NCBI GenBank assembly: GCA_017418445.1
Contig: JAFONM010000003.1
Span: forward strand, 1-50,409
DNA length: 50,409 bases
Source of the DNA: Kiritimatiellia bacterium
Lineage (GTDB): Bacteria; Verrucomicrobiota; Kiritimatiellia; RFP12; UBA1067
Direction of reading: 5' to 3'
In this document: piece by piece, positions 12,419 through 50,409 of the stretch
How the letters are laid out: each line of letters opens with the position of its first letter
Numbering within the stretch: the stretch's first letter is position 1
Notes under the pieces: model-generated
What the model saw: the letters and a program-made list of their open reading frames with translations, nothing else
What the model was told of the DNA's origin: nothing
The model's database searches: none
Program-made: the position numbers and the translations under genes

Positions 12419-12425
12419 GGGTCTG

Positions 12426-12441
12426 CCGCCGCGGCGGTTTT
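12426..12441. terminator. GC palindrome plus T-tract between convergent genes (candidate intrinsic terminator)
   Basis: CCGCCGCGGCGG is a perfect palindrome followed by TTTT, 8 nt after the GH2-like stop. The stem is short and the loop minimal, so support is weak. Confidence 0.35.
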
Positions 12442-12464
12442 CGGACTTGCCGCGGCGAGGGCGG

Positions 12465-13085: not shown

Positions 13086-15196
13086 GTCGCCTCCCTGTCT
13101 TCGAGATGCGCGGGAAGCGATATCGTCGCCTCCGCGCCGTGCCCGGGCTCGCTTGCAATCGTGAATCGACCGCCGAGGTTGCCGATGCGCTCGCGGATGC
13201 CCTGAAGTCCGAAATGGCCCTGGGCGAGTCCGGGACTCGTCTCCGGATCGAATCCCCTGCCGTCGTCCCTGACGCGGCAGACGAGCCCGTCGCCGTCCAG
13301 TCGTCCCGTAATCTCGATCTTCTTCGCGCCGCCGTGGCGGACCGCGTTGATGACGAGCTCGCGAATCGCCTTGAAGAGCGAGAAGACAGTGGAGTCGGAG
13401 AGCCTGTCGCGCGGAACGTCGAAGTCGAGCGCGAGTTCGGCTTCGCCGAGGTGCGGCCTGAGGGCCTTGCCGAGCGTCTCGTTGAGGTTGGAGTCCTCGA
13501 GCGCGGTTCCGCGAAGGTCCCAGATGCAGTTCCTCAGGTCGTTCCTGCAGGACTTGAGCGCCTTCGCGGCGAAGTCGAGGTGCGGACGCATGTCCGGCGG
13601 CGCGGAGTCCGCGAAGTCGAGCGCCGTCTCGAGCTCCAGCGAGATTCCGGTCAGGTTCTGCGCCACCGAATCGTGCAGCTCGACCGCGAGACGCGTGCGC
13701 TCCTCGGTGCGCATGTCCGCCTTCGCGCGCGTCACCTGTTCGCGGAAGAGTTCGCGTCCGCGCCTGACCGCGAGCCGCCCAAGTGCGCGGTTCCATACGA
13801 GGATCGCGAGAAGGGCGGCGAACAGCGCGCCGATGACCATCAAAAGACGCTTCGGGGTCCACCACGAAGGACGCGCGAGGACGCGGATGTCGTCCGGATT
13901 CCTGAGAACGAGGAACACGCCGGTGACGTGCGGGAACGGCGCCTGCGGACGCCAGTTCTCCGTGTCCATGACGCATACGCCGTCGACCTCGATGCGGTAT
14001 CCCGGCTCGATGGGTTCCGGAGGTTCGGAGACGGATCCGATGTCCACGGCCAGCGTCTTGCCGCCGTCGGAGAGCAGGACTGTTCCGGACTCGGCGCCGT
14101 AGTCCGGAGAATCGATCACCGTTCCGGCGACCCGCAGGATCCGGCCGTGGCGCACGACGTCGAACTTGCGCAGTCCGCGGATGTCTGCGACCAGATCGGC
14201 GATGGCGACTGACTCCGGCTCCATGTCGAAGTACGTGAACGGTTCGGACCTCCTCCATATCGCGCGGGCGAGGTTGAGGTGGTAGAAGTCCGTCTCCGGG
14301 AGTCCCGCCGCCTCCACGAAGTCGCCGACCGCCGGAGGCTTCCCGCCCGAGAGCGCCACCGTCGACGCGCTGCCGTCCGGAGCCTTGAGCATCATCATCC
14401 GTCCGTGCATCCACACGGCCGCCACGCGTCCGCGCAGCTTGCGGCGGCGCGGCAGGGAGTCGTCCGGGAAGAGTATGTCGTGGACGTTGCCCTCGAGGTC
14501 TGGGACGTCGAACGGGGCGGGCGGAGGCGTTATGATCGTGATGTCCTTCCTGTCCAGGATGTTGACTTCGTACCCGAGTCTGGCGCGCGGACCGACTCCG
14601 CGGTAGCTGGAACAGACGCCGACGATGGACACCCTCGCGTCGACGAGACCGGCGAGATCGGTGTCGGTCAGCGACCGGGACGGAAAGTACATGGTGTCGC
14701 CGTCCTTGACGAGGACTATGAAGGTGTATTCGGGATTCGCCTCGTCGCGGAACGCCTCCACGACCGTCCCTTCGAGCCTGACGCGGTGCGACGTGAACCT
14801 GCCGCTGAAGACGTCCGCCGCCGAGACGTCCTCCGGATCGGGAATCGTTCCGCGTCCGACGACGGACATCTCCTCGACTACCGGCATGAAGATTCCGTCC
14901 TCGACAGTGCGTATCGCGCCCTTGAAGCGCATGAGGTCCCCGACCTCGACATGACGACCCTGGGTGAAAAGCCGCCTTGCGTTCACGGTGGCGTAGCCCG
15001 AGCCGTCCACGATCTCGAACGATCCGACCGCGGAATGGAACACGGGAGTCGCGACGGTTGCCGTGATGTCGAACGCGACTTCCTCCACGACTCCCGCAAG
15101 CGCCATCCGGTTGGCCTCGTCGGCCGTTCGCGCGATGTCGGACGCTTCCGCGCAGAGCGCGGCTGCGAGCATGGTCATGATGGCGGTCGTTCGCAT
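13082..15196 (-). CDS. sensor histidine kinase, HisKA_3/NarX-LiaS type, with a large extracytoplasmic domain (704 aa)
   Basis: An N-terminal signal/anchor is followed by a ~440-aa beta-rich region and a TM helix (LLMVIGALFAALLAILVW). The kinase core shows the H-box ELHDSVAQNL, N-box ELVINAVRHG, DDGRGF and GLQGIRERI. Confidence 0.85.
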   Translation of the reverse strand: MRTTAIMTMLAAALCAEASDIARTADEANRMALAGVVEEVAFDITATVATPVFHSAVGSFEIVDGSGYATVNARRLFTQGRHVEVGDLMRFKGAIRTVEDGIFMPVVEEMSVVGRGTIPDPEDVSAADVFSGRFTSHRVRLEGTVVEAFRDEANPEYTFIVLVKDGDTMYFPSRSLTDTDLAGLVDARVSIVGVCSSYRGVGPRARLGYEVNILDRKDITIITPPPAPFDVPDLEGNVHDILFPDDSLPRRRKLRGRVAAVWMHGRMMMLKAPDGSASTVALSGGKPPAVGDFVEAAGLPETDFYHLNLARAIWRRSEPFTYFDMEPESVAIADLVADIRGLRKFDVVRHGRILRVAGTVIDSPDYGAESGTVLLSDGGKTLAVDIGSVSEPPEPIEPGYRIEVDGVCVMDTENWRPQAPFPHVTGVFLVLRNPDDIRVLARPSWWTPKRLLMVIGALFAALLAILVWNRALGRLAVRRGRELFREQVTRAKADMRTEERTRLAVELHDSVAQNLTGISLELETALDFADSAPPDMRPHLDFAAKALKSCRNDLRNCIWDLRGTALEDSNLNETLGKALRPHLGEAELALDFDVPRDRLSDSTVFSLFKAIRELVINAVRHGGAKKIEITGRLDGDGLVCRVRDDGRGFDPETSPGLAQGHFGLQGIRERIGNLGGRFTIASEPGHGAEATISLPAHLEDREAT

Positions 15197-31496: not shown

Positions 31497-31497
31497 G

Positions 31498-32364
31498 ATG
31501 AGCAACAGGTCTTTGGGCATTCTCGTAGGCGCTGCGGCGGTCCTCTGCGCGGCCGCGTACTTCACGTCGGGGAGCAGGTCCTCCCCGTCGTCCCGCCTCG
31601 CGGGCGAAAAGCTCGCCGAGGAGTTCGACCTCGCGAAGGTCGCGTCAGTCGACATCGGCGGAAAGGTCAGGCTCGTCGCCGGAACGAACGGATGGGCCGT
31701 CTCTACCTACCAGGACTATCCCGCCGACATCGTGAAGATCCGCGAGAACCTCCTCAGGCTGAAGGACGCGAAGGTCGGACAGGTCGTCCGCGGACGCGAG
31801 CTCAGGGAGAAGACAGAGGTCGTCCTCAGGGACGACGCGGGTGCGGAGCTCGCGAAGGTGACGCTCGGCGACAGGCACGAGAAGTGGGGACGCGGACGCT
31901 ACGCCCTGAAGGGCGACACGACCGTCCTCGTCGGAGACGCGCTCGACGGATTCGGACCCGATCCGAAGGACTGGCTCGAGACGAAGATCGTGGACGATCC
32001 GTACGTCTCGTTCCGCGAGCTCGCCGACCCCGCGCTCACCGAGGAGGAGCTCGGCTTCGCGACGGGAGTCGTCGCCAAGGTCACGATCGCGGGCGACACG
32101 AACCGCGTCGCGACGATAGGCAACGTCGTGAAGGGCGGCTCCGACCGCTACATGAAGCTCGACGGCAAGAAGTGGGTCTTCGTCGTGCCGTCCTACTCCG
32201 TCGACAAGCTCCTCCCCAAGCCTCCGCCCGAAGAGAAGAAGGAGGAAGCAAGGGAGGAAGCTGCGGAGTCCGCCGAGAAGGAGGCGGCTCCGGACAGGGC
32301 CGAGGAGCCTGCAAAGGTCGAAACCCCGGCCGCGGCGCCCGAGAAATCCGCCGCGGAACCGTAG
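31498..32364 (+). CDS. DUF4340-like protein with an E/K/A-rich tail
   Basis: N-terminal anchor. GWAVSTYQDYPADIVKIRENLLRLKDAK resembles the DUF4340 core. Position directly after a GldG-like gene is typical for this family. Confidence 0.5.
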   Translation: MSNRSLGILVGAAAVLCAAAYFTSGSRSSPSSRLAGEKLAEEFDLAKVASVDIGGKVRLVAGTNGWAVSTYQDYPADIVKIRENLLRLKDAKVGQVVRGRELREKTEVVLRDDAGAELAKVTLGDRHEKWGRGRYALKGDTTVLVGDALDGFGPDPKDWLETKIVDDPYVSFRELADPALTEEELGFATGVVAKVTIAGDTNRVATIGNVVKGGSDRYMKLDGKKWVFVVPSYSVDKLLPKPPPEEKKEEAREEAAESAEKEAAPDRAEEPAKVETPAAAPEKSAAEP

Positions 32365-37238: not shown

Positions 37239-38597
37239 ATGAAAGTCTGCAAATTCGGCGGAAGCTCGCTCGCCAACGCGGCCCAGCTCAACAAGGTCAT
37301 AGACATAGTCCTCGCGGACCCCTCGCGGCGCATCGTCGTCGTCTCGGCCCCGGGAAAGCGCCACTCCGGCGACACGAAGGTGACGGACCTCCTCATCGCG
37401 CTCGCGGACACGGCACTCAAGGGCGAGAACACCGACCGCCAGTTCGGCGCCGTCGTGGAGCGCTACGCGTCCATCGCGGACGAGCTGAAGCTCGGGGACG
37501 ACATCGTCCGCCAGATCGAGGCGGACCTCAAGGACCGCCTCGCGAAGGTCTCCTCCCTCGCGAAGGAGGAGTTCATGGACCTCATGAAGGCGGCGGGCGA
37601 GGACAACAACGCGAAGCTCGTCGCCGTCGCCTTCGCCGGCCGCGGCAAGAAGGCGCGCTACGCGAGTCCGAAGGACACCGGGATGGTCCTTGCGGGACAG
37701 TTCGGCGACGCGGTGCTCGATCCGTGCAGCTACGCGACCCTCTCGAGGGCGTTCTCGAACTTCGACGGAATCGTCATCTACCCCGGTTTCTTCGGCTACA
37801 CGAAGGAGGGGAAGGTCGCGACGTTCCCGCGCGGCGGGAGCGACATCACCGGCTCCATCCTCGCGGCGGCCGTGTGCGCGGACGTCTACGAGAACTTCAC
37901 GGACGTCGACTCGGTCTTTCCCGTTGACCCGCGTATCGTCCCCGAAGTCACCGAGGGCATCCCCACGATGACCTACCGCGAGATGCGCGAGCTCGCCTAC
38001 GCGGGCTTCGGAGTCTTCGCGGACGACGCCGTCGTCCCCGCCGTCAAGGCGAGGATCCCGATCAACATCCGCAACACGAACCATCCGGGCGAGCCCGGGA
38101 CGATGATCCAGCAGTCCCGCCGCGTGGTGCCCGGCACGGTCGTCGGAATCGCGAGCGCGGACGACTTCTGCAACATCATCGTCGAGAAGTATCTGATGAA
38201 CCGCGAGGTCGGCTTCGGCCGCCGCCTCCTGCAGATCCTCGAGGAGGAGGGCATCCCCTACGAGCACACGCCTTCCGGCGTCGACTCGCAGTGCGTCGTC
38301 GTGAAGGGCAAGTTCCTTCCCAAGGAGAAGGAGCGCAAGGTCGTCCAGGCGATCAAGAACGGACTCCAGCCCGACTTCGTCGCCGTCGAGCGCGACATCA
38401 CCATCCTCATGGTGGTGGGCGAGGGCATGTGCTACACTCCCGGCATGCTCGCCAAGGCCTGCCTCGCGCTCGCCTCGGAGGGAATCTCGATGTCGATGGT
38501 CAACCAGGGCTCGAGCGAAGTGAGCTTTATGCTCGCAATCCGCAGGAAGGACCGCGACATGGCCGTCCGTGCGCTCTACAAGGCATTCTTCGGGTGA
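37239..38597 (+). CDS. lysC: aspartate kinase
   Basis: MKVCKFGGSSL, VVVSAPG, and C-terminal ACT-type repeats. It starts 4 nt after the hom stop. Confidence 0.85.
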   Translation: MKVCKFGGSSLANAAQLNKVIDIVLADPSRRIVVVSAPGKRHSGDTKVTDLLIALADTALKGENTDRQFGAVVERYASIADELKLGDDIVRQIEADLKDRLAKVSSLAKEEFMDLMKAAGEDNNAKLVAVAFAGRGKKARYASPKDTGMVLAGQFGDAVLDPCSYATLSRAFSNFDGIVIYPGFFGYTKEGKVATFPRGGSDITGSILAAAVCADVYENFTDVDSVFPVDPRIVPEVTEGIPTMTYREMRELAYAGFGVFADDAVVPAVKARIPINIRNTNHPGEPGTMIQQSRRVVPGTVVGIASADDFCNIIVEKYLMNREVGFGRRLLQILEEEGIPYEHTPSGVDSQCVVVKGKFLPKEKERKVVQAIKNGLQPDFVAVERDITILMVVGEGMCYTPGMLAKACLALASEGISMSMVNQGSSEVSFMLAIRRKDRDMAVRALYKAFFG

Positions 38598-38695
38598 CGC
38601 GGAGCCGGGAAAAGAGTATAATATCCGGAACGGCCGGGGTATGGCAACGACGGTAGGAAAATAAAACATGGTAGAACAACGAGGGAGGGTATACG

Positions 38696-40231
38696 ATGTC
38701 CGCTAAACTTCTTTTGAGGATCGGCGCGCAGGTAAGCGAGGTGCAGATTCCCGAGACCGGTATGACTCTTGGCCGGAGCGCCGAGGGCAACGACCTGCAG
38801 ATCAACGATCCGAGCATTTCAGGCAACCACTGCCGCTACATTCCGCAGAACGGACAGTGGGTCCTGCAGGACCTCGGCAGCACCAACGGGACGTTCGTGA
38901 ACGGGACCCAGATACCGCCCGCCCCGCAGGCCGTCCTCGTCTCGAACGGCGACAAGATCAAGATGGGCGACATCCTCGCGGACTTCGTCTGCTCCGCGCC
39001 CGCGGCGAAACCCGCGGCCGCCGCGCCCGCACAGCAGCAGCGCCAGGCGGCGCCCGCGCAGGCCGCGAAACCCGCCGCCCCGGCCGCCCCCGCCGCTCCC
39101 GCCGCGAAGCCCGCCGTCAAGGCCGCCCCCGGGAAGAAGGGCGCCGCAGGCGCGAAGGTCTCGGAGAGGAAGTCCACCTGGACCGCCCCCGCCCTCCACA
39201 TCGACAACACTCCTCCGCCGGAGATGTCCGCGGACGACGTCGCGCTCATCAGGCTCCTCAACGAGAAGTACTCCGCCGCCAAGGAGCAGCTCTCGAAGGT
39301 CGTCATCGGCCAGATGCCCGTCATCGAGGAAGTCCTCACCGCCGTGTTCGCCCGCGGCCACGCGCTCCTCATGGGCGTCCCCGGTCTCGCCAAGACACTC
39401 CTCATCGCGACGCTCTCGAAGGTCCTCGACCTCAGGTTCAAGCGCGTCCAGTTCACCCCCGACCTGATGCCTTCGGACATCACCGGCACGGACGTGCTCG
39501 AGGAAGACAAGGCGTCCGGTGCGAGAAAGTTCCGCTTCGTCGAGGGCCCTGTCTTCACGAACATGCTTCTCGCCGACGAGATCAACCGTACCCCGCCGAA
39601 GACCCAGGCGGCCCTCCTCGAGGCCATGCAGGAGCACCACATCACAGTCGGCTCCCACACGTACGACCTCCCCGAGCCGTTCTTCGTCCTCGCGACCCAG
39701 AACCCGATCGAACAGGAAGGCACGTACCCCCTGCCGGAAGCGCAGATGGACCGCTTCCTCTTCAACATCATCGTCCACTATCCGCAGCACGACGACGAGA
39801 TGACGATCATCCGCAACGTCACGTCCGGCACGAAGACGAAGCTCGAGAAGATCCTCGACGGCGAGACTGTCATCAAGCTCCAGGACGTCGTCAAGCGCGT
39901 CCCCGTCGCGCCGCACGTCATCGAGTACGCCTGCAACCTCGCGCGCGCCACCCGTCCGAAGGAACCGGACGCGCCGGACTTCGTCAAGGAGCTCGTCGGC
40001 TGGGGCGCGGGTCCGCGCGCCGGCATCTCCCTCATCACCGCGGCGAAGGCCCGCGCGATCCTCCACGGACGCCACCACACCACGATGGGCGACGTCTCCG
40101 CGGTCGCGATGCCGGTCCTCCGCCACCGCGTCATCACGACCTTCGCGGCCGAGGCCGCCGGCGTCTCCTCGGACGACATCGTGAACATGCTCCTCAAGGC
40201 CCTCAAGCCCGACGTCGGACTCGACATCTGA
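38696..40231 (+). CDS. FHA domain - MoxR-type AAA+ ATPase fusion (511 aa)
   Basis: The N-terminal FHA signature is GRSAEGNDLQINDPSISGNHCRY...LGSTNGTFVNG. An ~70-aa Ala/Pro/Lys-rich linker follows. The MoxR (AAA_3) core has GVPGLAKT (Walker A), LLADEINR (Walker B) and ATQNPIEQEGTYPLPEAQMDRF. Confidence 0.85.
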   Translation: MSAKLLLRIGAQVSEVQIPETGMTLGRSAEGNDLQINDPSISGNHCRYIPQNGQWVLQDLGSTNGTFVNGTQIPPAPQAVLVSNGDKIKMGDILADFVCSAPAAKPAAAAPAQQQRQAAPAQAAKPAAPAAPAAPAAKPAVKAAPGKKGAAGAKVSERKSTWTAPALHIDNTPPPEMSADDVALIRLLNEKYSAAKEQLSKVVIGQMPVIEEVLTAVFARGHALLMGVPGLAKTLLIATLSKVLDLRFKRVQFTPDLMPSDITGTDVLEEDKASGARKFRFVEGPVFTNMLLADEINRTPPKTQAALLEAMQEHHITVGSHTYDLPEPFFVLATQNPIEQEGTYPLPEAQMDRFLFNIIVHYPQHDDEMTIIRNVTSGTKTKLEKILDGETVIKLQDVVKRVPVAPHVIEYACNLARATRPKEPDAPDFVKELVGWGAGPRAGISLITAAKARAILHGRHHTTMGDVSAVAMPVLRHRVITTFAAEAAGVSSDDIVNMLLKALKPDVGLDI

Positions 40232-40245
40232 CCTGACCGATTCCG

Positions 40246-41187
40246 ATGGCCGGAATGGAAAATCAGCCCGCGTACATGAAATGGCTGCCGCCGAAGACGA
40301 CGGCGACCATCGCCCGTTGCGAATTCTTCGGGCGCACCATGAAGTCGGGCTTCATCTCCGGCAAGCACAGAAGTCCCAAGAAGGGCTTCTCCGTCGAGTT
40401 CGCCGAACACCGCCAGTACGTACCGGGGGACGATCTCAGGAACCTCGACTGGAAGGTGCTCGCGAGGAAGGACCGTCTCTACATCCGCCAGTACGAGGAG
40501 GAGACGAACCTCCGCGCCACGATCCTCGTCGACTGCTCCGGCTCCATGGCCTACGCGGGCGACTGCGCCGCGGAGGTCGACGGACGGCGCCTCTCGAAGT
40601 ACGACTACGCGCGCTACCTCGCGGCGGGGCTCACCTACATGCTCGCAGGACAGCAGGACGCGGTCGGACTCGTCCTCTTCGACACGAAGATGAGGAAGTA
40701 CCTCCCCGCGAAGTCCCAGGCCTCGCAGGTCCGGCACATCCTCGAGTTCATGGACACGACCGAGTGCGGCGGGGACACCGCCCCCGCTCCCGTCTTCGAC
40801 GAGATCGCCGAGCGCATCCCGTCCCGCGGACTCGTCGTCATCATTTCGGACCTCTTCGACGCGAACGTGGACGCGCTGCTCAAGTCGCTCCACCACTTCA
40901 ACTATCGCAGGCACGAGATAGTCGTCCTCCACACGATGGCGGAGGAGGAGCTTCACTTCGACTTCGACGGGCACATGCACTTCAGGGACCTGGAGTCCCC
41001 GGCCGAGCTCCTCCTCGACGCGAAGTCCATCCGCGCGGGCTACCTCGACCAGGTCAACAGGTTTCTCAAGAAGATCGGCGACGGCGTGAGGAAGATGAAC
41101 GCCGACTACGTGCCGATAAACACGAAGACGCCGTTCGACACGGTGCTTACCGAATACCTGAGCCGCCGCCGCTCGGGAGGAGCATGA
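40246..41187 (+). CDS. DUF58 family protein (vWA-like, MoxR partner)
   Basis: FAEHRQYVPGDDLRNLDWKVLARKDRLYIRQYEEE is the DUF58 hallmark. It sits 14 nt after the MoxR gene. Confidence 0.85.
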   Translation: MAGMENQPAYMKWLPPKTTATIARCEFFGRTMKSGFISGKHRSPKKGFSVEFAEHRQYVPGDDLRNLDWKVLARKDRLYIRQYEEETNLRATILVDCSGSMAYAGDCAAEVDGRRLSKYDYARYLAAGLTYMLAGQQDAVGLVLFDTKMRKYLPAKSQASQVRHILEFMDTTECGGDTAPAPVFDEIAERIPSRGLVVIISDLFDANVDALLKSLHHFNYRRHEIVVLHTMAEEELHFDFDGHMHFRDLESPAELLLDAKSIRAGYLDQVNRFLKKIGDGVRKMNADYVPINTKTPFDTVLTEYLSRRRSGGA

Positions 41188-41199
41188 GGGAGCCGCGAA

Positions 41200-44169
41200 A
41201 TGCAGTTCGTAAACTTCCTGATGATATCCGGACTCCTCGCGGTGGCGATCCCCGTCATCATCCAGCTCCTTACCCGCAAGAACGCCTCGATAGTCCACTG
41301 GGGCGCGTGGCTCTTCCTCGACCTCACGATGAAGCGCCGCCGCAGGAAGGTGCTTCTCGAGGACATCCTGCTCCTCGCGTGCCGCTGCCTCATACCGGCC
41401 CTCGCGGCCCTCGCGTTCGCGCGTCCGTTCATCCGTCCCGACTCGCCGGTTCCGTGGGCGATCGTGATGCCGGTGCTGATTCTCTCAATCATCCTCTTCG
41501 GAGTCTCCTTCGCGCTCTGGCGCTATCCGCTGTGGCGCTGGCTCGCGATGGCCGCCGGCATCGCGCTCTTCGCCCTCGTGCTTGCGGCGATCATCTTCGA
41601 ACGCCAGCTCAACCTCAGGCGCTTCGGCTCCGGCGCCTCCAAGGACGTCGCGATAATCGTGGACGGCTCGGCCTCCATGTCGATGGTGAACGACGGCAAG
41701 TCCAACTTCGAGCGCGGACTCGACGAGGCTCGCAGGTACATCGAGCAGGCTCCCCGCGGAACCGCGTTCTCGATCGTCCTCGGCGGACCCGTCCCGCAGG
41801 TGATGAACCCCGTCCCGATCGCCGACAGGCGAATCCTCCTCAACACTCTCGACCGCCTAACGCCCGCGAACGGCACGATGCAGATATCCCCGAACCTCAC
41901 GGCCGCCGCCGTGACGCTCGCGCAGGGACACAACGCCGTCAAGCAGATCGTCATCGTCGGCGACGGACAGACCGTCGGCTGGCACCTCGACAACCTCGAG
42001 CGCTGGAGCGCGATCCGCCGCGTCTTCGCGCAGCTCAAGACGAGCCCGATCCTCGTCTGGCGCACCCTCCCGCTCCCGACATCCATCCGCAACCTCGCGA
42101 TCGCGGAGGTCCGCCCCTCGCGCGACGTCGTCGGCACGGACCGCGAGGCGAAGATCGACGTCACCGTCGTCAACGCCGGAACCGAGGCCGTGACGCCCTC
42201 GGAGGTGACGCTCAAGATCGGCGCGGACGTCAGGAACGCCCGCAACCTCCACCAGCTCGACCCCGGCGAGAGCCAGACGTTCAGCTTCCCGTACCGCTTC
42301 AAGCATCCTGGCGGAACCATCATCACCGCACACGTCGCGGCCGAGGACGACCTCCCCGTCGACGACACCTACCGCTACGTCCTTCCCGTCATGAAGTCCC
42401 TCAAGGTCCTCGTCGTCGACGGCGAGTCCTCGGCGGACATCTTCCGCCGCGGGTCGACCTACGTCTCCCTCGCGCTCCGCCCCGAGTTCGAGCACCTCGT
42501 GTCCGGCGGCGGCTCCGCCAGGCGGCAGCCCGCCGGCGAGGGCGAGGTCGAGAAGGGCTACCTCCTCGACACGAAGGTCGAGGACATAACGGTCGCCGGA
42601 CGCCGCACCGGGTTCGGAGGCTTCGCGGCCGTCATCCTCATGAACGTCGAGAGGCTCCCCGAGAACCTGATGGCCAGGCTCGCGACGTATGTCGAGCACG
42701 GCGGCGGACTCTTCGTCATGCCGGGTCCGCGCACCGACCGCGACCTCTTCAACTCCTGGAAGCTCGGCAACGAGAACGTCCTCCCGCTCGCGCTCGGCAA
42801 GACCGTCGTGAACGTGCCTCCGGCGGAGGCGGGAGCCGAGGACGGGGAGGATCCGAAGGCGAAGACGTTCGCGGAACTCGACACCGCCACCTTCACCGGC
42901 GACGCGATACGCAAGTTCCGCACCGGAACCGACCTCGGCGGACTCGCGCCGCCGAGCTTCGTCGAGCTGAAGGAGGGCATCTCCGGCGGGGCGGACGTGA
43001 TAGCGCGCTTCTCCACGGGCCAGCCGTTCCTCGCGATGCGCGCGCTCGGACGCGGCACCGTGTGCCTCTCCGCGATCACCTTCGACCTCGATTCCGGAAT
43101 CGTCGCGAAGAGCGGATTCGTCCCGCTCATGCACGAGCTCGCCTACCGCCTCGCGCGACCCGTCTCCGTGCGCCTCGACATCGCGCCGTCGGACGGCGTC
43201 ACCGTCCTCCTCGCGCCCAGCGCCGCGAGCTCGAACGAGACCGCGGACGAGCAGGGGCTCATGGGCTACTACTACCCGAAACCGAACTACGCCGGCAAGC
43301 CCGTGGTCAGGAAGGATCCCCGCATCGACTTCTGGTGGAGGGGCGCCGCCCCCATGAAGAACTTCCCCGGGGACAACTTCAGCGTGAAGTGGCGCGGATC
43401 CATCCAGGCTCCCAAGACCGGCTACTACACGTTCGACTTCCATCAGGACGACCGGTTCAGGTTCCAGATCGACGGACGTTCCGGCAAGAGGTTCGAGCTC
43501 GAGGAGGGCAGGAGGTATTCGTTCAACGCGTCTTTCGAGGAGGACTGGGGCGCCGCCATCGCGGTGCTCATGTGGACTACGCCTGACGGGAAGAAGGAGA
43601 CCGTTCCCTCGTCCGCGTTCTCGACCTTCGGCAGCGACAGCGGCACCGTCGTCGAGATAAAGGATCCGCACGGCGAGCCGTTCTACGGCGAGATCGTCCA
43701 GAAGGAGGACGGCGTGTTCCTGCACATCTCGCAGAGCGTGATGCCGGGAATGTATACGGTCGCCGAGATTCCCGACTTCCTCAGGGAGGACCTCGGCGGA
43801 GTCATGACTCCCGACGAGACGATCGTCCTCAGCGTCGTCGCCGGCGTGGAGGAGTCGCGCATGGAGGCCGTGACGACCGAGCAGATAGACGAGCTCGGCA
43901 GGTACGTCCAGATCTCCACCGCGACCAAGGAGGAGGACGTCGTCAAGGCGATCGGCGGCGAGTCCTTCGGCAAGGAGATCTGGCGCACACTCGCGATGGC
44001 CGCGTTCATCTTCCTCATCCTCGAGGTCGTCCTCGCCCGCTGGATCGCGATAAGCCGCCGTACGGGGGAGAACATCCAGGTCGATTTCAGGAACGACAAG
44101 CTCCAGGCCTCGGAGGCCTTCAAGCGCTCCGTGGCCGCCCTCAACGCAAAGGAAGGAGCGGGAGGATAG
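41200..44169 (+). CDS. BatA_N double-TM / vWA / GATase1-like / PA14 multidomain membrane protein (989 aa)
   Basis: The N-terminus MQFVNFLMISGLLAVAIPVIIQLLTRK is BatA_N/TIGR02226-like. A vWA MIDAS motif is present (IIVDGSASMS). There is a GATase-like block (AAVILMNVERLPENLMARLATYVEHGGGLFVMPG) and a PA14-like block (GLMGYYY...FSVKWRGSIQAPKTGYYTFDF..DDRFRFQIDG). A C-terminal TM helix closes the protein. Confidence 0.75.
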   Translation: MQFVNFLMISGLLAVAIPVIIQLLTRKNASIVHWGAWLFLDLTMKRRRRKVLLEDILLLACRCLIPALAALAFARPFIRPDSPVPWAIVMPVLILSIILFGVSFALWRYPLWRWLAMAAGIALFALVLAAIIFERQLNLRRFGSGASKDVAIIVDGSASMSMVNDGKSNFERGLDEARRYIEQAPRGTAFSIVLGGPVPQVMNPVPIADRRILLNTLDRLTPANGTMQISPNLTAAAVTLAQGHNAVKQIVIVGDGQTVGWHLDNLERWSAIRRVFAQLKTSPILVWRTLPLPTSIRNLAIAEVRPSRDVVGTDREAKIDVTVVNAGTEAVTPSEVTLKIGADVRNARNLHQLDPGESQTFSFPYRFKHPGGTIITAHVAAEDDLPVDDTYRYVLPVMKSLKVLVVDGESSADIFRRGSTYVSLALRPEFEHLVSGGGSARRQPAGEGEVEKGYLLDTKVEDITVAGRRTGFGGFAAVILMNVERLPENLMARLATYVEHGGGLFVMPGPRTDRDLFNSWKLGNENVLPLALGKTVVNVPPAEAGAEDGEDPKAKTFAELDTATFTGDAIRKFRTGTDLGGLAPPSFVELKEGISGGADVIARFSTGQPFLAMRALGRGTVCLSAITFDLDSGIVAKSGFVPLMHELAYRLARPVSVRLDIAPSDGVTVLLAPSAASSNETADEQGLMGYYYPKPNYAGKPVVRKDPRIDFWWRGAAPMKNFPGDNFSVKWRGSIQAPKTGYYTFDFHQDDRFRFQIDGRSGKRFELEEGRRYSFNASFEEDWGAAIAVLMWTTPDGKKETVPSSAFSTFGSDSGTVVEIKDPHGEPFYGEIVQKEDGVFLHISQSVMPGMYTVAEIPDFLREDLGGVMTPDETIVLSVVAGVEESRMEAVTTEQIDELGRYVQISTATKEEDVVKAIGGESFGKEIWRTLAMAAFIFLILEVVLARWIAISRRTGENIQVDFRNDKLQASEAFKRSVAALNAKEGAGG

Positions 44170-47100
44170 ATGGACCAGAACCTAGTGAGAACCGATCTGC
44201 TGCCGATGGTCATGCCGACCGCGGTCCTCGTCGGGCTCGCCCTCGCGTCGACAGGCGCGTGGATCGCTGCGCACTATCTCGTCAAGCGCTTCCTCCGCAG
44301 GTTGAGGGCCGCCTACCGCGTCCTCCTCGTGATGCCGATCGGCATCATCTCCTCGTGGCTCGTCCTCCAGGCCTCCGCGAGGTTCCTCTTCCTCGCGACG
44401 AGCTGGTCCCTCTTCTTCTCCGCGATTGTCGCGGCGGCGGCGCTCGAGTCCGTCGCGGCCATATACGAGCACGAGAAGGAGCGCGTCCCCAGGAAGCACG
44501 GACGCGCCATCGTCGCCCTCAGGCTCGCCGCGATCGCGATCCTCTTCTTCATGATCATGCAGCCGGTCCTCATCGGCGAGTCGAAGCGCACCGTGAGAAG
44601 CCGCGTGATCGTCCTCGCGGACGACTCCGCCTCCATGCACTTCGTCGACAGGCAGTGGACCGACGCGGAGCGCGTCGACGCGGCCGTCGCCCTGGGCAGG
44701 ACCGGGACGGCCAAGCCGCCCGCGAGGGACTTCTGCGACCTCGTCGCGCGCGCGGATTCCCTCGCCGGCGAGATCGAGACCGTCCGCGAGCTCGCCTCCG
44801 TCGGCGGCAAGGACATGCCGAAGGACGCGATGGAGGCGGGCGCGAAGCTCGTCTCGGACCTCGCGGCGGAGCTCGACAGGTCCGTCCCGAAGCTCTCCCA
44901 GTCGCGCAAGGACTACATCGCGGAGCTCGGGCGCCTCGACAGCCACCTCAAGTCGAAGCTCGTCCCCGTCATGAAGAGGCTCGCCGGCACCGTCGCCGCC
45001 GGGGACGCGGCGGGATCCGGCGCCGCGGCGAAGGAGGCTTCCGACGCGCTCGCGGAGGCGCGTCCGGCGATGCTGAAGGCCCAGGACCTCCAGGCGCTCG
45101 CGTGGTACGACGCCCTCTCGAAGAAGGACCGCGACGAGGTGATCGCGGCGACCGAGGTTCCGCGCGCGAAGATCGTCCGCGCCCTGATGAACCACGGCGG
45201 GGAAGATGCGATACTGAAGAAGCTTTCGGATCGCTATGACGTGGACGTCTTCAGATTCGGTCACGGCGCGATGCAGGACGGATCGCTCCTAGACGAGCGC
45301 GAGCACTCCGAGCGGTTCGAGGCGGCCCTCTCCCCGCGCGACATACAGTTCCGCTCCGCGACCGACATGACGCGCGCACTCGAAACGGTGATGAGGGAGA
45401 TTCCGACCGAGGAGATCTCGTCCGTCATATTCTTCACGGACGGACGCCACACCGGCGACGCGGGCGTCGAGTCCGTGGCGCGCAAGCTCGGCTCGATGGG
45501 CGTGTCCATATCGTCCGTCATCGTCGGCGGCACGACTCCTCCGTTCGACCTCGCGATCGCCGCGGTGCAGGCCCCCGAATCGATCTTCGTCGGCGACAAG
45601 GTCCGCTTCACCGTCAACGTCGCGGCGACGATGGCCAGCGGCAGGCAGGCCGAGGTGACGCTCATGGCGGGCGAGGAGAAGATAGACTCGAAGGTCCTCG
45701 ACATAACCTCCGACGACTGGCAGGAGGAGGTCCGCTTCAAGCACGAGCCGGAGAAGCGCGGAATTTACAAGTACACCGTCGACCTCAGGCTCCTCGACAA
45801 CGAGCTCTTCGAGGACAACAACAGGTGGGAGGTCTCGGTCTCCGTCTCCGACGACCGCACGAACGTCCTTCTCGTCGACAACCGTCCGCGCTGGGAGTTC
45901 CGCTACCTCAGGAACCTCTTCTACGGGCGCGACAAGTCGGTGCACCTCCAGGACTACCTCATCACGCCCGACACCTGCACTCTTCCGGACGGCGTCCACC
46001 TCGATCCGCTTCCCGCCGCGTCCGCGAGCCGCGAGTTCGGCGACTCCGAGTCCGGCGCGTTCCCGCAGGAGTCCGAGGAATGGCGCAAGTTCGACCTCAT
46101 CATCATCGGCGACCTCTCCGACAGCCAGCTCTCCGCCGAGACGGTCAGGATGATCAAGTACTGCGTCGAGGAGCGCGGCGCGCTTCTCGTCGTCATCGCC
46201 GGACCCGAGTCGATGCCGTACAAGGTGACGAATCCGGACTTCAGGGCGATGCTGCCCATCGAATACGATCCCGACGGACAGGAACACCGCACTCCGCCCG
46301 AGGAGGAGTACACGTTCTCCCTCACCCCGGCCGGCCGCGGGCATCCCGTCATGGCCCAGTCCTCGTCCTCCTCCGAGAACGAGGAGATATGGGGCGAGCT
46401 CCCTGACTTCCACTGGCGCATTCCGATCAAGGGCGTGAAGGCGGGCTCGGAGGTCCTCGCCTACGCGCGCTCGAAGAAGGATGCCGAGGCCGGCGACGCC
46501 GCGGTCGCGCAGTCCATCGCCGCCACCATCGAGGAGGATCCCGAGGCCGCCGTCAAGCGCCTCGAGGACATCCGCAACGAGCAGGCCCGCAACGCCGTCG
46601 TCGTCGCGAGGACGTGCGGACGCGGCAAGGTGCTGATGATGAACACGGACCGCATGTGGCGCCTCAGGTACCGCGTCGGCGACACGCGCCACCACCGCTT
46701 CTGGGGACAGGTCGTCCGCTGGGGCGCGGGCGAGAAGCTCCAGACCGGCAACGAGTTCGTCCGCCTCGGCACGGACCAGCTCCGCTACGACGTGGGCGAG
46801 CCGATCAAGGTCTACGCGAGGTTCCTCGACTACAACTACGGCGGACTCCAGGACCTCGAGCCGACGGTCGTCCTCACGGACATGACCGGCGGCCACCGCA
46901 ACGAGTATCCGCTCCGATTGAGGCCGGACTCCAACGGATTCTACGAAGGGGAGATTCCGGGAATCGGCGACCCCGGCGCCTACCAGGTCGAGCTCGTCTG
47001 CGAGGGCGCGATCGAGAAGATCGGCCACAACTTCCCGCGCCACCTCAAGACCCGCTTCGTCATCGTCATGGCGAAGCAGCCCGTCGAGACCGTCAACATC

Positions 47101-47322
47101 ACCGCGAGCCGCGACGCCCCGACGAGGATGGCGAAGGCGACGAAGGGACGCGTGATGACGCCGACGGAATGGACCGGGCTCACCGACGACTTCGGTGCCG
47201 GCAACAAGACGATGAGGGACCGCACCGAGTACCAGCTCTGGTGCATGCCGCCGCTGTTCATATTGCTGATGGGGCTCCTTACCGCGGAGTGGATAATAAG
47301 GAAGCGCGCCAAGCTCGCGTAG
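44170..47322 (+). CDS. vWA-domain membrane protein with a GATase1-like (DUF1355-type) module (1050 aa)
   Basis: Starts on the base after the upstream stop. It has N-terminal TM helices, a MIDAS-like VLADDSASMHF, FFTDGRHTGD, FDLIIIGDLS...GALLVVIAGP, and a C-terminal TM helix (LWCMPPLFILLMGLLTAEWII). Confidence 0.65.
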   Translation: MDQNLVRTDLLPMVMPTAVLVGLALASTGAWIAAHYLVKRFLRRLRAAYRVLLVMPIGIISSWLVLQASARFLFLATSWSLFFSAIVAAAALESVAAIYEHEKERVPRKHGRAIVALRLAAIAILFFMIMQPVLIGESKRTVRSRVIVLADDSASMHFVDRQWTDAERVDAAVALGRTGTAKPPARDFCDLVARADSLAGEIETVRELASVGGKDMPKDAMEAGAKLVSDLAAELDRSVPKLSQSRKDYIAELGRLDSHLKSKLVPVMKRLAGTVAAGDAAGSGAAAKEASDALAEARPAMLKAQDLQALAWYDALSKKDRDEVIAATEVPRAKIVRALMNHGGEDAILKKLSDRYDVDVFRFGHGAMQDGSLLDEREHSERFEAALSPRDIQFRSATDMTRALETVMREIPTEEISSVIFFTDGRHTGDAGVESVARKLGSMGVSISSVIVGGTTPPFDLAIAAVQAPESIFVGDKVRFTVNVAATMASGRQAEVTLMAGEEKIDSKVLDITSDDWQEEVRFKHEPEKRGIYKYTVDLRLLDNELFEDNNRWEVSVSVSDDRTNVLLVDNRPRWEFRYLRNLFYGRDKSVHLQDYLITPDTCTLPDGVHLDPLPAASASREFGDSESGAFPQESEEWRKFDLIIIGDLSDSQLSAETVRMIKYCVEERGALLVVIAGPESMPYKVTNPDFRAMLPIEYDPDGQEHRTPPEEEYTFSLTPAGRGHPVMAQSSSSSENEEIWGELPDFHWRIPIKGVKAGSEVLAYARSKKDAEAGDAAVAQSIAATIEEDPEAAVKRLEDIRNEQARNAVVVARTCGRGKVLMMNTDRMWRLRYRVGDTRHHRFWGQVVRWGAGEKLQTGNEFVRLGTDQLRYDVGEPIKVYARFLDYNYGGLQDLEPTVVLTDMTGGHRNEYPLRLRPDSNGFYEGEIPGIGDPGAYQVELVCEGAIEKIGHNFPRHLKTRFVIVMAKQPVETVNITASRDAPTRMAKATKGRVMTPTEWTGLTDDFGAGNKTMRDRTEYQLWCMPPLFILLMGLLTAEWIIRKRAKLA

Positions 47323-47332
47323 GAGGTTGCAG

Positions 47333-50300
47333 ATGAAATTCCTGTCCAGACTTTTCAACAGAACGCGTCCGCAGCTCATCTCCGAGCGGATCCCCTCCGC
47401 CACGTACGCGCAGCTGCCGAAGGAGATATCCTCGAAGCTCAAGGCGGCCGCCCGCCGCGTCAGGCGCATCGTCCTCGTCCGCGGACTCTGCGCGACGATC
47501 GCCGTCTTCACGGTGGCGATACTCATCGTCATGGCCGTCGACGCGATGGTCGTCATCTTCTCCCCGTTCGTCCATTGGGGGCTCTGGCTCGCGGTCGTCG
47601 CGGCAACCGTCGTCACCGCCTGGCGGACCATCGTCCAGCCGCTTTCGATTCCGCTGACCCCCGCCCGCATCGCGGCTCTCGTCGAGGCGAACCATCCCGA
47701 GCTCGAGGAGCGCCTCTCGTCTGTCGTCGAACTCCTCGGCATGGGACAGGAGCTCAAGGCGTCCGCCCGCCTCATGGAGGTCCTCGCGCAGGACGCCGTC
47801 ACCGACGTCAGGAAGGTCTCGGTCAGGAAGGACTTCTCCGCCCGCACCGTCAAGCCTCGCTTCCTCGCGGCGCTCATAGCCATATCGATCGTCGCGCTCC
47901 TCGTCCTCGCGTTCCCGCGCGCGATGTCGCGACTCATAATCCGCGCCGTCATCCCGACCGCAGAGGTGGACAACGTCTATGCGGACGCCCTCAAGGTCAC
48001 GCCCGGCGACGCCGTGATCCTGCAGGGCACCCCGTTCACCGTGCAGCTCGCCGTGGAGTCCGGCTATCCGTCCCGTGCGTACGTGAGGACGCGCGGCATG
48101 GAGTCGAGGAGCGAGACCGCGGAGCGCATGACCCAGACCTCCGCGGAGGGCGGGGGCGGTCCGACCTACTACTCGTTCAGCTATCCGCTCGTCCAGAAGT
48201 CCTTCGCCTACCGCGTCCACTGCGGGAGCGCCCTCACGCGCGAGTTCAAGGTCAAGGCCCTCGCTGCGCCAGCGTACACCAATCTCGAGGTGAAGCTCCG
48301 GTATCCCGCATACACGAAGCGCGAGCCGGAAGTCGTCAGGGAGCAGAAGCCCGCCCCGATCTCCACCGTCGCGGGGACGAAGATCGAGATTTCCGCGGAA
48401 CCCAACAGGACGGACCTCAGGGAAGAGCTCCTCCTCCCCGGCGACAGGGCGATCGAGCCGTCGTCCGAGGGCGACGGACGCTTCACGTTCAAGTTCGACC
48501 TCGAGGACATGAGGGGACAGTGGGGAATCCAGCTCTCGGACGACTACGGCTTCTCCAACCAGGTCGAGTTCGCCTCCATCGAGGTCGTCAAGGACGCCGC
48601 TCCAGAGATAAAGCTCCTCGCTCCGAAGACGCTCGCGATGGAGCTTCCTACGTTCGGCGCGATTCCGTTCGAGTACAGGATTACGGACGACTTCGGCTTC
48701 TCCTGCGTCCGCGTCGAGATCACCGGCGAGAACGGACAGTACGAGGAGGCGATGTCCCTCGAGCCAGCCGAGACCGAGCGCCGCGTCTGGACCGGCGCCG
48801 GCACGATCGAGCTCTCGAAGTTCAACCTCGACAAGCGCCGCGCGGTGCGCTTCCGCCTCGCCGCCGCCGACAACTATCCCGAGGAGCTGGGCGGACCCCA
48901 CGTCTCCTATTCCGAGGACATGTCCGTCCGCATCGCGCAGGACGCGACATCGCTCGCCGGCAAGGCCCTCTCGGAGCAGATCAAGAACGCGAATCTCACC
49001 GTCACCGAGGTCGTCAAGAAGCTCACGGCCGCGAAGAAGGACGCCGGCGTCGCCATCAGGGGCTTCGGACTCGGCGATACCAACGCGGGAATGCACAACA
49101 AGGGCTTTGAATCCCTCGACGCCGCGAAGAAGGACCTCCTCGAGGGCGAGAAGATGCTCGGCGACCTCGTGAAGGAGCTCGACAGCACGATGCTCACAGC
49201 GGGCGGCGACATACTGGAGAAGGCGCTCGACGACTACCTGGTCCCGACGCGCCGCTTCTGCGAGGACATCTACCTCCTGCAGGGCGACGACAAGGAGAAG
49301 GCCGCGAAGACCGAAGAGCTCGAGAAGAAGATCCAGGAGACGATCGACGCGCTCACCAAGGCGCAGAAGGACTTCGACAAGGCCGCGGAGGACGCGAAGG
49401 ACCTCCAGAAGCTCGCCGAGCTCGCCGCCCGCGAGAAGGCGCTCGCCGAGATGGCCGAGAAGGGCGAGATCGACCCCGAGCAGTTCGCAAAGATGCAGAA
49501 GGCGCTCCTCGACGAGTTCAACAAGGAGTTCGAGGACAAGCTCAAGGATCCGCTCCAGAAGGAGAAGGACCAGGTCTCCGCGTTGAAGGAGAAGGGCGAG
49601 GACCTCAAGAAGCAGCAGGAGGAACTCCAGAAGGACGCCGCCGCGCTCAAGGGCGACGACCCGGAGGCGAAGGCCGAGGCCGAGAAGGACCTCCGCGAGA
49701 AGACGAAATCGATGCCGTCCGAGACCTCCGCCGAGGACCGCCTCGCTGAACTCGAGGACCGCATCGCCGAGGACATCGACAAGCTCGCCAAGGAAGCCGA
49801 CAAGATGTCCGACGAATTCGACAGGAAGAACGCCCGGAACGCCGAGAACGCCGATTCGCCCGAGAACGCCGAGAAGGCCGGCAAGGAGGCCTCCGAGAAC
49901 GCCAGGGAGGCGTCCCAGAGCGCCCAGGATGCCGCGAAGGACGCGAAGGAGGCGGCCGACGCCCTCAAGGACGGCAACCAGGAGTCCGCAAACGAGAACA
50001 TGGACCAGGTCAAGGAGAACCTCGACAGGACGGGCGAGAAGCTCGACGAGACGATGTCCAGCCTCGACCAGCAGTCGGAGGCGATGCAGGGCGACGTCTC
50101 CGACTACAGGGACGCGCAGTCCGACATGCAGGCCGCGACCGAAGCCGCCGAGCAGGCCGCGCAGGAGGCCGCGGAGGCCGCGCAGAACGCCGAGGGCAAT
50201 CCCGAGAACTGGGACGGACAGAAGGACCCGAACGCCGAGGTCCCGGACTCCGGCATGGACGACGGCCAGCGCGACCCCAACCAGCAGTGGGACGGACAGA

Positions 50301-50409
50301 AGGACCCGAACGCCGAGGTTCCGGACTCCGGCATGGACGACGGCCAGCGCGACCCCAACCAGCAGTGGGACGGACAGAAGGACCCGAACGCCGAGGTTCC
50401 GGACTCCGG
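47333..50409 (+). CDS. membrane/coiled-coil protein, DUF4175-like, 3' end outside window (>1025 codons)
   Basis: Not in the supplied ORF track because it has no stop in the window. AGGAGG at 47321..47326 is followed by a 6-nt gap and ATG 47333. Hand translation of this frame to base 50409 shows no stop. It has two N-terminal TM helices, a beta-rich middle, a long E/K/A/D coiled-coil-type tail and tandem repeats at the end. Confidence 0.65.
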   Translation, partial: MKFLSRLFNRTRPQLISERIPSATYAQLPKEISSKLKAAARRVRRIVLVRGLCATIAVFTVAILIVMAVDAMVVIFSPFVHWGLWLAVVAATVVTAWRTIVQPLSIPLTPARIAALVEANHPELEERLSSVVELLGMGQELKASARLMEVLAQDAVTDVRKVSVRKDFSARTVKPRFLAALIAISIVALLVLAFPRAMSRLIIRAVIPTAEVDNVYADALKVTPGDAVILQGTPFTVQLAVESGYPSRAYVRTRGMESRSETAERMTQTSAEGGGGPTYYSFSYPLVQKSFAYRVHCGSALTREFKVKALAAPAYTNLEVKLRYPAYTKREPEVVREQKPAPISTVAGTKIEISAEPNRTDLREELLLPGDRAIEPSSEGDGRFTFKFDLEDMRGQWGIQLSDDYGFSNQVEFASIEVVKDAAPEIKLLAPKTLAMELPTFGAIPFEYRITDDFGFSCVRVEITGENGQYEEAMSLEPAETERRVWTGAGTIELSKFNLDKRRAVRFRLAAADNYPEELGGPHVSYSEDMSVRIAQDATSLAGKALSEQIKNANLTVTEVVKKLTAAKKDAGVAIRGFGLGDTNAGMHNKGFESLDAAKKDLLEGEKMLGDLVKELDSTMLTAGGDILEKALDDYLVPTRRFCEDIYLLQGDDKEKAAKTEELEKKIQETIDALTKAQKDFDKAAEDAKDLQKLAELAAREKALAEMAEKGEIDPEQFAKMQKALLDEFNKEFEDKLKDPLQKEKDQVSALKEKGEDLKKQQEELQKDAAALKGDDPEAKAEAEKDLREKTKSMPSETSAEDRLAELEDRIAEDIDKLAKEADKMSDEFDRKNARNAENADSPENAEKAGKEASENAREASQSAQDAAKDAKEAADALKDGNQESANENMDQVKENLDRTGEKLDETMSSLDQQSEAMQGDVSDYRDAQSDMQAATEAAEQAAQEAAEAAQNAEGNPENWDGQKDPNAEVPDSGMDDGQRDPNQQWDGQKDPNAEVPDSGMDDGQRDPNQQWDGQKDPNAEVPDS
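50210..50409 (+). repeat. 78-bp in-frame tandem repeat, at least 2.6 copies, running off the window
   Basis: Units start at 50210, 50288 and 50366. They differ by a single C/T substitution (GAGGTCCCG vs GAGGTTCCG). Each encodes WDGQKDPNAEVPDSGMDDGQRDPNQQ. Confidence 0.9.

Follow-up and report, generated by a model that had tools for sequence, protein, structure and literature searches.

Operons that combine a MoxR-proper (MRP) ATPase with DUF58 and von Willebrand factor A (vWA) proteins are among the most widespread bacterial gene clusters without a mechanistic explanation. Bat-like examples have been described in Bacteroides fragilis, Leptospira (PMC3557215), and Borrelia (BB0170-BB0176; PMC5700661). 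In Bifidobacterium, the PFNA operon (pkb2-fn3-MoxR-duf58-tgm-prpC-x-fha) encodes a MoxR that the kinase Pkb2 phosphorylates (PMC8430577). The Esr pathway of Actinomycetales includes MoxR, vWA, a kinase/phosphatase, and a separate forkhead-associated (FHA) protein (PMC13622651). Here, we analyze a 50,409-nucleotide stretch of DNA (the window) from a Kiritimatiellia bacterium (contig JAFONM010000003.1 of assembly GCA_017418445.1), in which the gene at 38696..40231 on the forward strand joins an FHA domain and a MoxR-proper ATPase in a single protein at the head of a Bat-like operon.

FHA, vWA, and MoxR proteins have also been found together in other settings. In Sulfolobus, the FHA protein ArnA and the vWA protein ArnB act together under Ser/Thr phosphorylation; elsewhere, MoxR/GvpN ATPases are frequent partners of ArnB-type vWA proteins (PMC4858521). 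In the MoxR-vWA-beta-propeller ternary conflict systems, FHA is listed among the occasional domains (Kaur et al. 2020, PMC7159879). No published description of an FHA-MoxR fusion was found in the literature searched, a provisional result in that most subscription journals were not covered, and public records label these proteins just "AAA family ATPase" or "MoxR-like ATPase."

The FHA-MoxR protein

The initial annotation described this gene as an N-terminal FHA domain followed by an Ala/Pro-rich linker and a complete MoxR core. Pfam domains occur in that order, and all of the motifs it quoted were located as described. The features of the gene and its product are given below in window coordinates, with conservation taken from alignment A2 of homologues and from alignment A1, which holds 16 fusions chosen for diversity (22-65% identity over the N-terminal part).

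38594..38622, + strand: GTGACG-17-TATAAT, a sigma-70-like promoter match by consensus only, about 74 nt ahead of the start codon
38681..38689, + strand: Shine-Dalgarno-like GAGGGAGGG, read directly from the sequence, with a 6-nt spacer to ATG 38696
38696..40231, + strand: FHA-MoxR fusion gene, 511 aa, with a TGA stop at 40229-40231 (reading of the open frame, Pfam, homologue alignment)
38696..38995, + strand: FHA domain, residues 1-100, an all-beta fold (Pfam, AlphaFold2 [AF2], Foldseek, phmmer against PDB)
38765-38968, + strand: Pfam core of the FHA domain, residues 24-91 (Pfam and a whole-genome FHA scan)
38768..38779, + strand: FHA Gly-Arg loop, L25-G26-R27-S28 (LGRS), in which the Arg is the phosphate-binding residue
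38819..38830, + strand: FHA S-x-x-H loop, S42-G43-N44-H45 (SGNH)
38876..38893, + strand: FHA (S/T)-N-G loop, G61-S62-T63-N64-G65-T66 (GSTNGT)
38996..39196, + strand: low-complexity Ala/Pro/Lys/Gln linker, residues 101-167, predicted to be disordered (composition, AF2, Tandem Repeats Finder [TRF])
39197..39226, + strand: H-I-D-N-T-P-P-P-E-M, residues 168-177, the junction motif that joins the linker to the N-terminal helix of MoxR
39224..40228, + strand: MoxR-proper AAA+ core, residues 177-511, comprising the N-terminal helix, AAA_3, and AAA_lid_2 (Pfam)
39374..39397, + strand: Walker A, GVPGLAKT, residues 227-234, invariant in A1 and A2
39566..39589, + strand: Walker B, LLADEINR, residues 291-298, invariant in A2
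39692..39706, + strand: sensor-1 block, ATQNP, residues 333-337, invariant in A2
39737..39757, + strand: EAQMDRF, residues 348-354, invariant in A2, with R353, which we take from general AAA+ knowledge to be a candidate arginine finger
40004..40024, + strand: GAGPRAG, residues 437-443, in the lid domain and invariant in A2, its arginine presumably (again from general AAA+ knowledge) a candidate for sensor-2

The FHA profile PF00498 matches the N-terminal region over the whole domain (profile positions 2-67 of 67) and above the curated cut-off (E = 1.3e-19; 70.9 bits versus 20.7), and a whole-genome scan for FHA domains gave the window's copy 75 bits. All of the residues known to bind phosphothreonine are present in the protein, and they are invariant or nearly so among its relatives. 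Across 128 fusions, conservation reaches 100% at G26, 96% at R27, 99% at S42 and H45, 99% at S62, 98% at N64, and 99% at G65, with Thr at position 63 in 74% and Ser in another 20%. In A1, G26, R27, S42, H45, S62, and G65 never vary and N64 is retained in at least 90% of sequences, while neighboring positions vary freely. This residue pattern is the one expected for a working phosphothreonine reader rather than for a decayed or merely structural fold, and the alignments indicate strong purifying selection on the residues that bind phosphothreonine.

Structural comparisons agree with the profile match. In an AF2 model built from 36 sequences, residues 1-100 form nine beta strands with predicted local distance difference test (pLDDT) values of 83-92. 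Foldseek superimposes this predicted domain over about 100 residues on the FHA domains of GarA, OdhI, and DgcB at a root-mean-square deviation (rmsd) of 1.4-2.1 Å, with Rv0020c also matched; the rmsd is 1.4-1.5 Å to GarA and 1.8-2.1 Å to the DgcB FHA domain (31-33% identity), and target template-modeling (TM) scores are 0.8-0.9. Among these matches are the DgcB FHA domain bound to a phosphothreonine peptide (6hc1) and GarA bound to a kinase (6i2p). By sequence, phmmer retrieved from PDB an Arabidopsis FHA domain (1uht, E = 2e-14) and the FHA domain of Bdellovibrio DgcB (E = 7e-12), as well as GarA, OdhI, and Rv1747.

The remainder of the protein is a member of the MoxR-proper subfamily. AAA_3 (PF07726) covers residues 222-356 (E = 1.5e-63, 212.9 bits) and AAA_lid_2 covers residues 431-497 (E = 1.4e-16). 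The nearest solved structure, and the only one of the MoxR-proper type, is the MoxR-type ATPase of Cytophaga hutchinsonii (2r44; E = 9e-77, 38% identity by Foldseek). A further trait of the subfamily is an adjoining DUF58 gene, which here begins 14 nt downstream, an adjacency that is kept in relatives. The assertion that canonical MoxR proteins lack a regulatory N-terminal domain is borne out by 2r44, with 330 residues, and by a 341-aa paralogue in the same genome. Against this single-domain form of about 320-350 aa with nothing extra at its N terminus, the window's protein has 511 aa, with FHA and linker preceding the core.

Between the two domains lies a stretch that is predicted to behave as a flexible tether of about 65 residues. 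Residues 102-159 have pLDDT values below 50 in the AF2 model, and residues 101-160 include 27 Ala, 10 Pro, and 8 Lys per 60 positions, with almost no Thr until residue 161. The Ala/Pro-rich linker placed by the initial annotation at about 38995-39160 is present (residues 100-154, nt 38993-39157), but this composition is confined to close relatives and is no general trait of the architecture. Distant fusions have Ser/Thr/Glu-rich linkers in place of Ala/Pro/Lys-rich ones, and both composition and length vary widely among homologues, the latter from about 30 to more than 130 residues. The linker DNA contains imperfect 21- and 9-nt tandem repeats at 39054-39116 (period-21 and period-9 arrays in TRF). 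Linker length is probably polymorphic between strains through slippage, because a metagenome variant with 98% identity (P0001) differs from the window by one 7-aa (21-nt) indel and two substitutions, all of them within the linker.

FHA domain and ATPase are a real fusion, translated as one protein. The frame runs without interruption from 38696 to 40231 and encodes 511 aa, and its start codon lies upstream of the FHA region, which is itself conserved in homologues. ATG 38696 can be regarded as a sound start because GAGGGAGGG precedes it, because a promoter-like match lies farther upstream, and because more than 100 homologues align across 100% of the length of the fusion protein, FHA domain included. 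The promoter-like match sits in a 98-nt gap behind an unrelated aspartokinase gene, and the scan for sigma-70-like consensus sites yielded 3 sites compared with 0.2 expected in shuffled sequence. Thus, the profile match, the intact phosphothreonine-binding residues, and a start codon that is not downstream of the FHA region all leave the initial description of the gene standing.

Operon context, relatives, and distribution

Downstream of the ATPase gene, the window contains the following genes.

40246..41187, + strand: DUF58 (vWA-like) protein, 313 aa, 14 nt behind the ATPase gene (Pfam DUF58, E = 1e-39)
41200..44169, + strand: 989-aa membrane protein with a BatA_N double transmembrane segment, vWA, CARDB, and PA14, after a 12-nt gap behind DUF58 (Pfam, NCBIfam TIGR02226)
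44170..47322, + strand: 1050-aa membrane protein abutting the 989-aa gene, with a weak vWA_2 match under the cut-off
47327..50407, + strand: large open reading frame that runs off the end of the window

FHA-MoxR heads a conserved and tightly packed MoxR-DUF58-BatA/vWA envelope operon, of which the large open reading frame is probably the last gene. The third gene product matches BatA_N (PF07584), vWA_2, and TIGR02226, and its architecture is shared by FHA-bearing and FHA-less relatives alike (loci L024, L025, L028-L031, and L032). Its CARDB and PA14 domains lie between the vWA domain and the C-terminal anchor. In relatives, the 1050-aa gene has an unannotated counterpart of about 900-1070 aa, and the large open reading frame has one of more than 1100 aa in L024 and L025. 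The proposal of a Bat-type system holds for MoxR, the batI-like DUF58, and BatA_N/vWA, all of which are present, but no BatC-type TPR protein was found, nor BatD or BatE: a Pfam scan of the proteins of 41200-47322, which did not extend to the last open reading frame (47327 onward), detected neither TPR nor any other family specific to Bat.

The same gene order accompanies the FHA fusion on Kiritimatiellae metagenome contigs (L024, L025) and in a metagenome-assembled genome (MAG) of Victivallales (L032). No neighbor accompanies the fusion more constantly than DUF58. It directly follows FHA-MoxR in these three loci, in a Verrucomicrobiales MAG (L033) where it alone follows, and in Planctomycetota (L113-L115), and it lies one gene further downstream on a Verrucomicrobiota contig (L026) with the order DUF4159, FHA-MoxR, one unknown gene, DUF58, BatA. 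In a Lentisphaerae MAG (L102), the fusion is the last gene of an operon that includes a TPR-containing protein, and DUF58 does not come after it. The DUF58 proteins of the window (at 40246-40330) and of homologues in L013-L061 share an N-terminal motif, YM(K/R)(W/L)LP-x-x-T(T/V)-x-(T/I)I-x-R-x-E, that occurs regardless of FHA.

Comparison with relatives reveals that the FHA domain is an accessory input module, dispensable for the core machine, because near-identical orthologues without it exist, as does a canonical paralogous operon. Two FHA-less orthologues on metagenome contigs (P0072 and P0117; loci L028-L031) are about 90% identical in the ATPase core and head the same operon of MoxR, DUF58, a BatA/vWA/CARDB/PA14 protein, and a large protein, and no FHA coding sequence was found in any frame within 6 kb on either side of them. 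Their upstream neighbors differ, with a DUF3465 gene in L028 and L029 and an unannotated 469-aa protein in L030 and L031. The paralogous operon is in the window's own genome, on contig C6 (27346-28371, 28379-29296, and 29301-33356), and encodes an FHA-less MoxR of 341 aa with 64% identity to the window's core, DUF58, and a 1351-aa BatA-like protein. This last protein resembles a fusion of the counterparts of the window's third and fourth genes, and it has a motif, RPRWEFRYL(K/R)NLFYGRDKSV, in common with the product of the fourth. A 749-aa open frame at the C6 paralogue was rejected as GC-rich read-through, as the true start is ATG 27346, preceded by AGGAGG, which gives a product of 341 aa; open-frame length was not used as evidence for N-terminal extensions.

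In a tree of ATPase cores, the C6 ATPase is sister to the FHA-bearing clade. FHA presence is clustered on this tree, requiring 10 changes compared with 18.7 in shuffles (0 of 500 shuffles were as low), and well-supported branches force at least 3 gains or losses. Other N-terminal and tandem arrangements occur among relatives: a sister representative (P0123) has a Cys-rich, zinc-ribbon-like N terminus (CSVCG...CRCGH) instead of FHA, in two others (P0121 and, in Planctomycetota, L112) FHA precedes a tandem pair of MoxR cores, and another (P0006) has two tandem MoxR cores with a C-terminal zinc ribbon and no FHA.

The fusion is a recurrent lineage trait of Planctomycetes-Verrucomicrobia-Chlamydiae (PVC) bacteria, found in Kiritimatiellia, Lentisphaeria, Verrucomicrobia, and Planctomycetes, and is not peculiar to this gene. 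A set of 1.84 billion proteins, clustered at 50% identity, supplied the 150 best representatives, 14 of which have FHA plus MoxR, and close homologues come from sources named Kiritimatiellae or Kiritimatiellia. Whole-genome samples were searched with a profile of A1 that spans the FHA domain through Walker A. Within the window's GTDB phylum, this profile matched end to end in 27 of 401 genomes and as two adjacent pieces in the same frame in 6 more, for a total of about 33 (~8%) distributed over several classes; in Planctomycetota it matched in 13 of 301 genomes (~4%), and in Bacteroidota, home of the original Bat operon, in 0 of 301. Among 80 MoxR loci listed for the Walker A pattern only, a near-random sample across many phyla, there were 3 fusions, all from PVC bacteria (Victivallales, Verrucomicrobiales, and Lentisphaerae). 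At finer scale the picture is patchy. Three genomes assigned to the same GTDB genus (G438, G447, and G472; 91-93% complete) have an orthologue of neither the FHA-MoxR gene nor the C6 paralogue, and the best MoxR in them is just 46-48% identical. Contigs C73 and C6 both have a composition typical of the bin. Either the operons are accessory, with a patchy occurrence in this genus, or the 65%-complete bin has been assigned to the genus loosely.

Possible routes to phosphothreonine control

The genome, a MAG that is 65% complete, encodes both writers and erasers of phosphothreonine marks. At least six genes for Hanks-type kinases lie above the Pfam cut-off, most of them with a transmembrane segment, and contig C46 carries a cluster at 11220-13779 of Pkinase (11220-11996), PP2C_2 (12254-12856), and a second Pkinase (13018-13779). 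Both C46 kinases have a C-terminal hydrophobic segment, probably a membrane anchor. There are also three further FHA proteins in the genome. On contig C17 (~29267-32186, - strand; locus L010), a 579-aa protein combines an N-terminal FHA domain (E = 9e-17) with a T2SSE/CpaF-type secretion ATPase (E = 7e-66) through an acidic, Pro-rich linker, which is the same FHA-input design on a second ring ATPase of this genome.

These data suggest that the Bat-like machine is under kinase control by way of FHA-MoxR. At slightly better than even, we favor a model in which a partner marked by a kinase anchors or gates the ATPase hexamer in trans by way of the FHA domain. According to this model, a membrane-bound Hanks-type kinase whose gene lies elsewhere would phosphorylate Thr on a partner, which may be the juxtamembrane segment of the kinase itself or the cytoplasmic part of a client or adaptor from the operon. 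The six tethered FHA domains of a MoxR hexamer would bind these marks in trans, and binding would concentrate or activate the ATPase at the marked site. Chaperone-like remodeling or assembly of the DUF58/vWA membrane proteins would then occur only when and where the kinase is active, and the PP2C phosphatase would reset the system.

Several observations count against this model. The canonical FHA residues are degenerate in a few distant fusions (P0163 and P0156), so not every protein of this architecture binds phosphothreonine. The operon and its immediate neighborhood, in the window and at the related loci examined, yielded no kinase, no phosphatase, and no evident phospho-target, and none of these operons contains a PP2C, transglutaminase, or separate FHA gene. 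A search for kinase and phosphatase neighbors returned none in the operons of L024-L033 or L102; L025 does have a single Pkinase gene, about 10 kb upstream, but L024 does not share it, and the kinases and PP2C of the window's own genome are located on other contigs than the operon. One candidate target, the Thr-rich LPPxTTATI at the N terminus of DUF58, had to be rejected, because operons without FHA have it as well. The finding is computational and comes from uncultured or little-studied bacteria.

A more specific form of trans control can be offered tentatively, as possible but short of probable. In this form, the hexamer would act as a multivalent phospho-sensor that docks on an activated, autophosphorylated membrane Hanks kinase, or on its substrate array, so that a MoxR/DUF58/vWA chaperone of envelope assembly that would otherwise be constitutive becomes a kinase-gated checkpoint. 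If so, the FHA-bearing and FHA-less pairs, together with the paralogous operon, would represent "regulated" and "unregulated" versions of one machine, and FHA would give the long-unexplained Bat/MoxR-proper systems their first regulatory handle. Extended to the FHA-CpaF ATPase, this logic would point to a general strategy among PVC bacteria of placing ring ATPases under Ser/Thr kinase control.

An alternative that we consider unlikely is a switch in cis, in which the FHA domain binds phosphothreonine on MoxR itself, either within its own chain, at the linker or junction, or on a neighboring subunit, and controls hexamer assembly or ATPase activity instead of bringing the ATPase to a different protein. 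There is precedent for such self-regulation among the closest relatives of this domain. The FHA domain of DgcB, one of the nearest solved ones, binds the phosphorylated tail of its own protein, and GarA and OdhI, both close structural matches, work by self-regulation. MoxR is itself a kinase substrate in the PFNA operon of Bifidobacterium (PMC8430577). Within the window's protein, a candidate site would be T172 in the junction xDNTPPPEM, a motif that the near clade shows only where FHA is present and that P0072 and P0117, which have no FHA, lack. However, position 172 is Thr in just 69% of near relatives and Ala in 20%, compared with 90% conservation of D170 and 91% of P173, and distant fusions from Lentisphaeria, Verrucomicrobiales, and Planctomycetota do not have the motif at all. 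The linker is nearly free of Thr until residue 161, and the FHA domain begins at about residue 2, leaving no room for an N-terminal tail like that of DgcB or GarA. No Ser/Thr column in the ATPase core separates FHA-bearing from FHA-less orthologues. We favor trans over cis because the core has no FHA-specific Ser/Thr, because the junction motif is so limited in its occurrence, and because there is no N-terminal acceptor tail.

Less probable still is a scaffold that works independently of phosphorylation, in which the FHA fold would be a protein-protein or oligomerization module like that of YscD/EscD in type III secretion, with no link to a kinase. The Pfam model Yop-YscD_cpl does match as well (E = 7e-11), the operon has no kinase, and P0163 and P0156 have lost canonical residues. 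Yet the FHA model scores far above the YscD model (70.9 versus 42.7 bits), the residues that contact phosphothreonine are invariant or nearly so here and in almost all fusions, and the nearest structures are bona fide phosphothreonine binders. Finally, an artifact of mis-assembly, mis-binning, a frameshift joining two genes, or a wrong start codon might be suspected in a 65%-complete MAG whose gene is missing from three genomes of the same genus, but it is barely credible given an uninterrupted frame with its own Shine-Dalgarno site, the same architecture at full coverage in hundreds of independent assemblies, and the composition of contig C73 (GC content of 64.5% versus 64.1% for the genome; 4th closest of 63 contigs to the tetranucleotide centroid), on which mis-binning was rejected.

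A conserved phospho-reader on the ATPase means that the machine is probably controlled by Ser/Thr kinases in PVC bacteria, and the FHA domain offers itself as a bait for the marked partner. The FHA-bearing and FHA-less orthologues, at about 90% identity, form a natural comparison, for which the canonical operon in the same genome can serve as an internal control.

Comparison with described systems

The window's operon shares with the Bat-like operons of B. fragilis, Leptospira, and Borrelia the order of ATPase, DUF58, and BatA_N/vWA. It differs in the FHA domain and tether added to the N terminus of the ATPase, in a BatA-like protein of about 1000 aa that carries CARDB and PA14, and in its downstream genes, where no BatC-type TPR protein was found and two further giant membrane proteins follow.

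With the PFNA operon and the Esr pathway, the likeness is one of components: in both of them a MoxR-proper ATPase and DUF58/vWA proteins are functionally tied to Hanks-type kinase, PP2C, and FHA signaling, a tie that we propose for the window's operon. In PFNA and Esr, kinase, phosphatase, and FHA are separate genes of the operon, whereas in the window FHA is fused to the ATPase and the operon has no kinase, phosphatase, or transglutaminase; the former are systems of Actinomycetota and the latter belongs to PVC bacteria. The initial annotation suggested that the FHA module would link a Bat-type system to Ser/Thr kinase signaling through recruitment to a partner marked with phosphothreonine, which is plausible. 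The genome does encode the kinases and phosphatase that such a link would need, but a connection of MoxR/DUF58 to Ser/Thr kinase/FHA signaling had already been published at the operon level (PMC8430577, PMC13622651), and only the direct fusion is new.

ArnA and ArnB offer a parallel from archaea, and the ArnA FHA domain (5a8i) is among both the sequence and the fold matches of the window's FHA domain. There, however, FHA is fused to a zinc ribbon rather than an ATPase, and the pair regulates expression of the archaellum. The ternary conflict systems have a MoxR and vWA core as the window does, but in them FHA is on the vWA or effector component rather than on MoxR, and the window's operon has no beta-propeller, effector, or NACHT-type domain. 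The Pfam family bpMoxR matches the window's ATPase weakly, at 36.3 bits versus 212.9 for AAA_3.

In layout, the closest parallels are enzymes in which an N-terminal FHA domain, a flexible linker, and a catalytic domain gated by phosphothreonine follow one another, as we propose here. They include DgcB, an FHA-GGDEF protein (6hbz, 6hc0, and 6hc1), and Rv1747 of Mycobacterium tuberculosis, an FHA-ABC transporter (6cah). Jelsbak and colleagues are said to have described in 2005 that sigma-54 enhancer-binding AAA+ proteins of Myxococcus carry an FHA domain; Pfam detected no Sigma54_activat (PF00158) match in the window's fusion, which is thus not an enhancer-binding protein of that FHA type. Unlike DgcB, Rv1747, and the sigma-54 activators, the fusion has as its output a MoxR chaperone-like ATPase rather than a cyclase, a transporter, or an activator, and in contrast to known FHA-input enzymes it has no phospho-acceptor tail upstream of FHA. 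FHA is a promiscuous input domain, which makes the finding plausible rather than startling. With it, the list of enzymes gated by an N-terminal FHA domain, which already holds GGDEF cyclases, sigma-54 activators, ABC transporters, and secretion ATPases, would gain a chaperone-like AAA+ ATPase.

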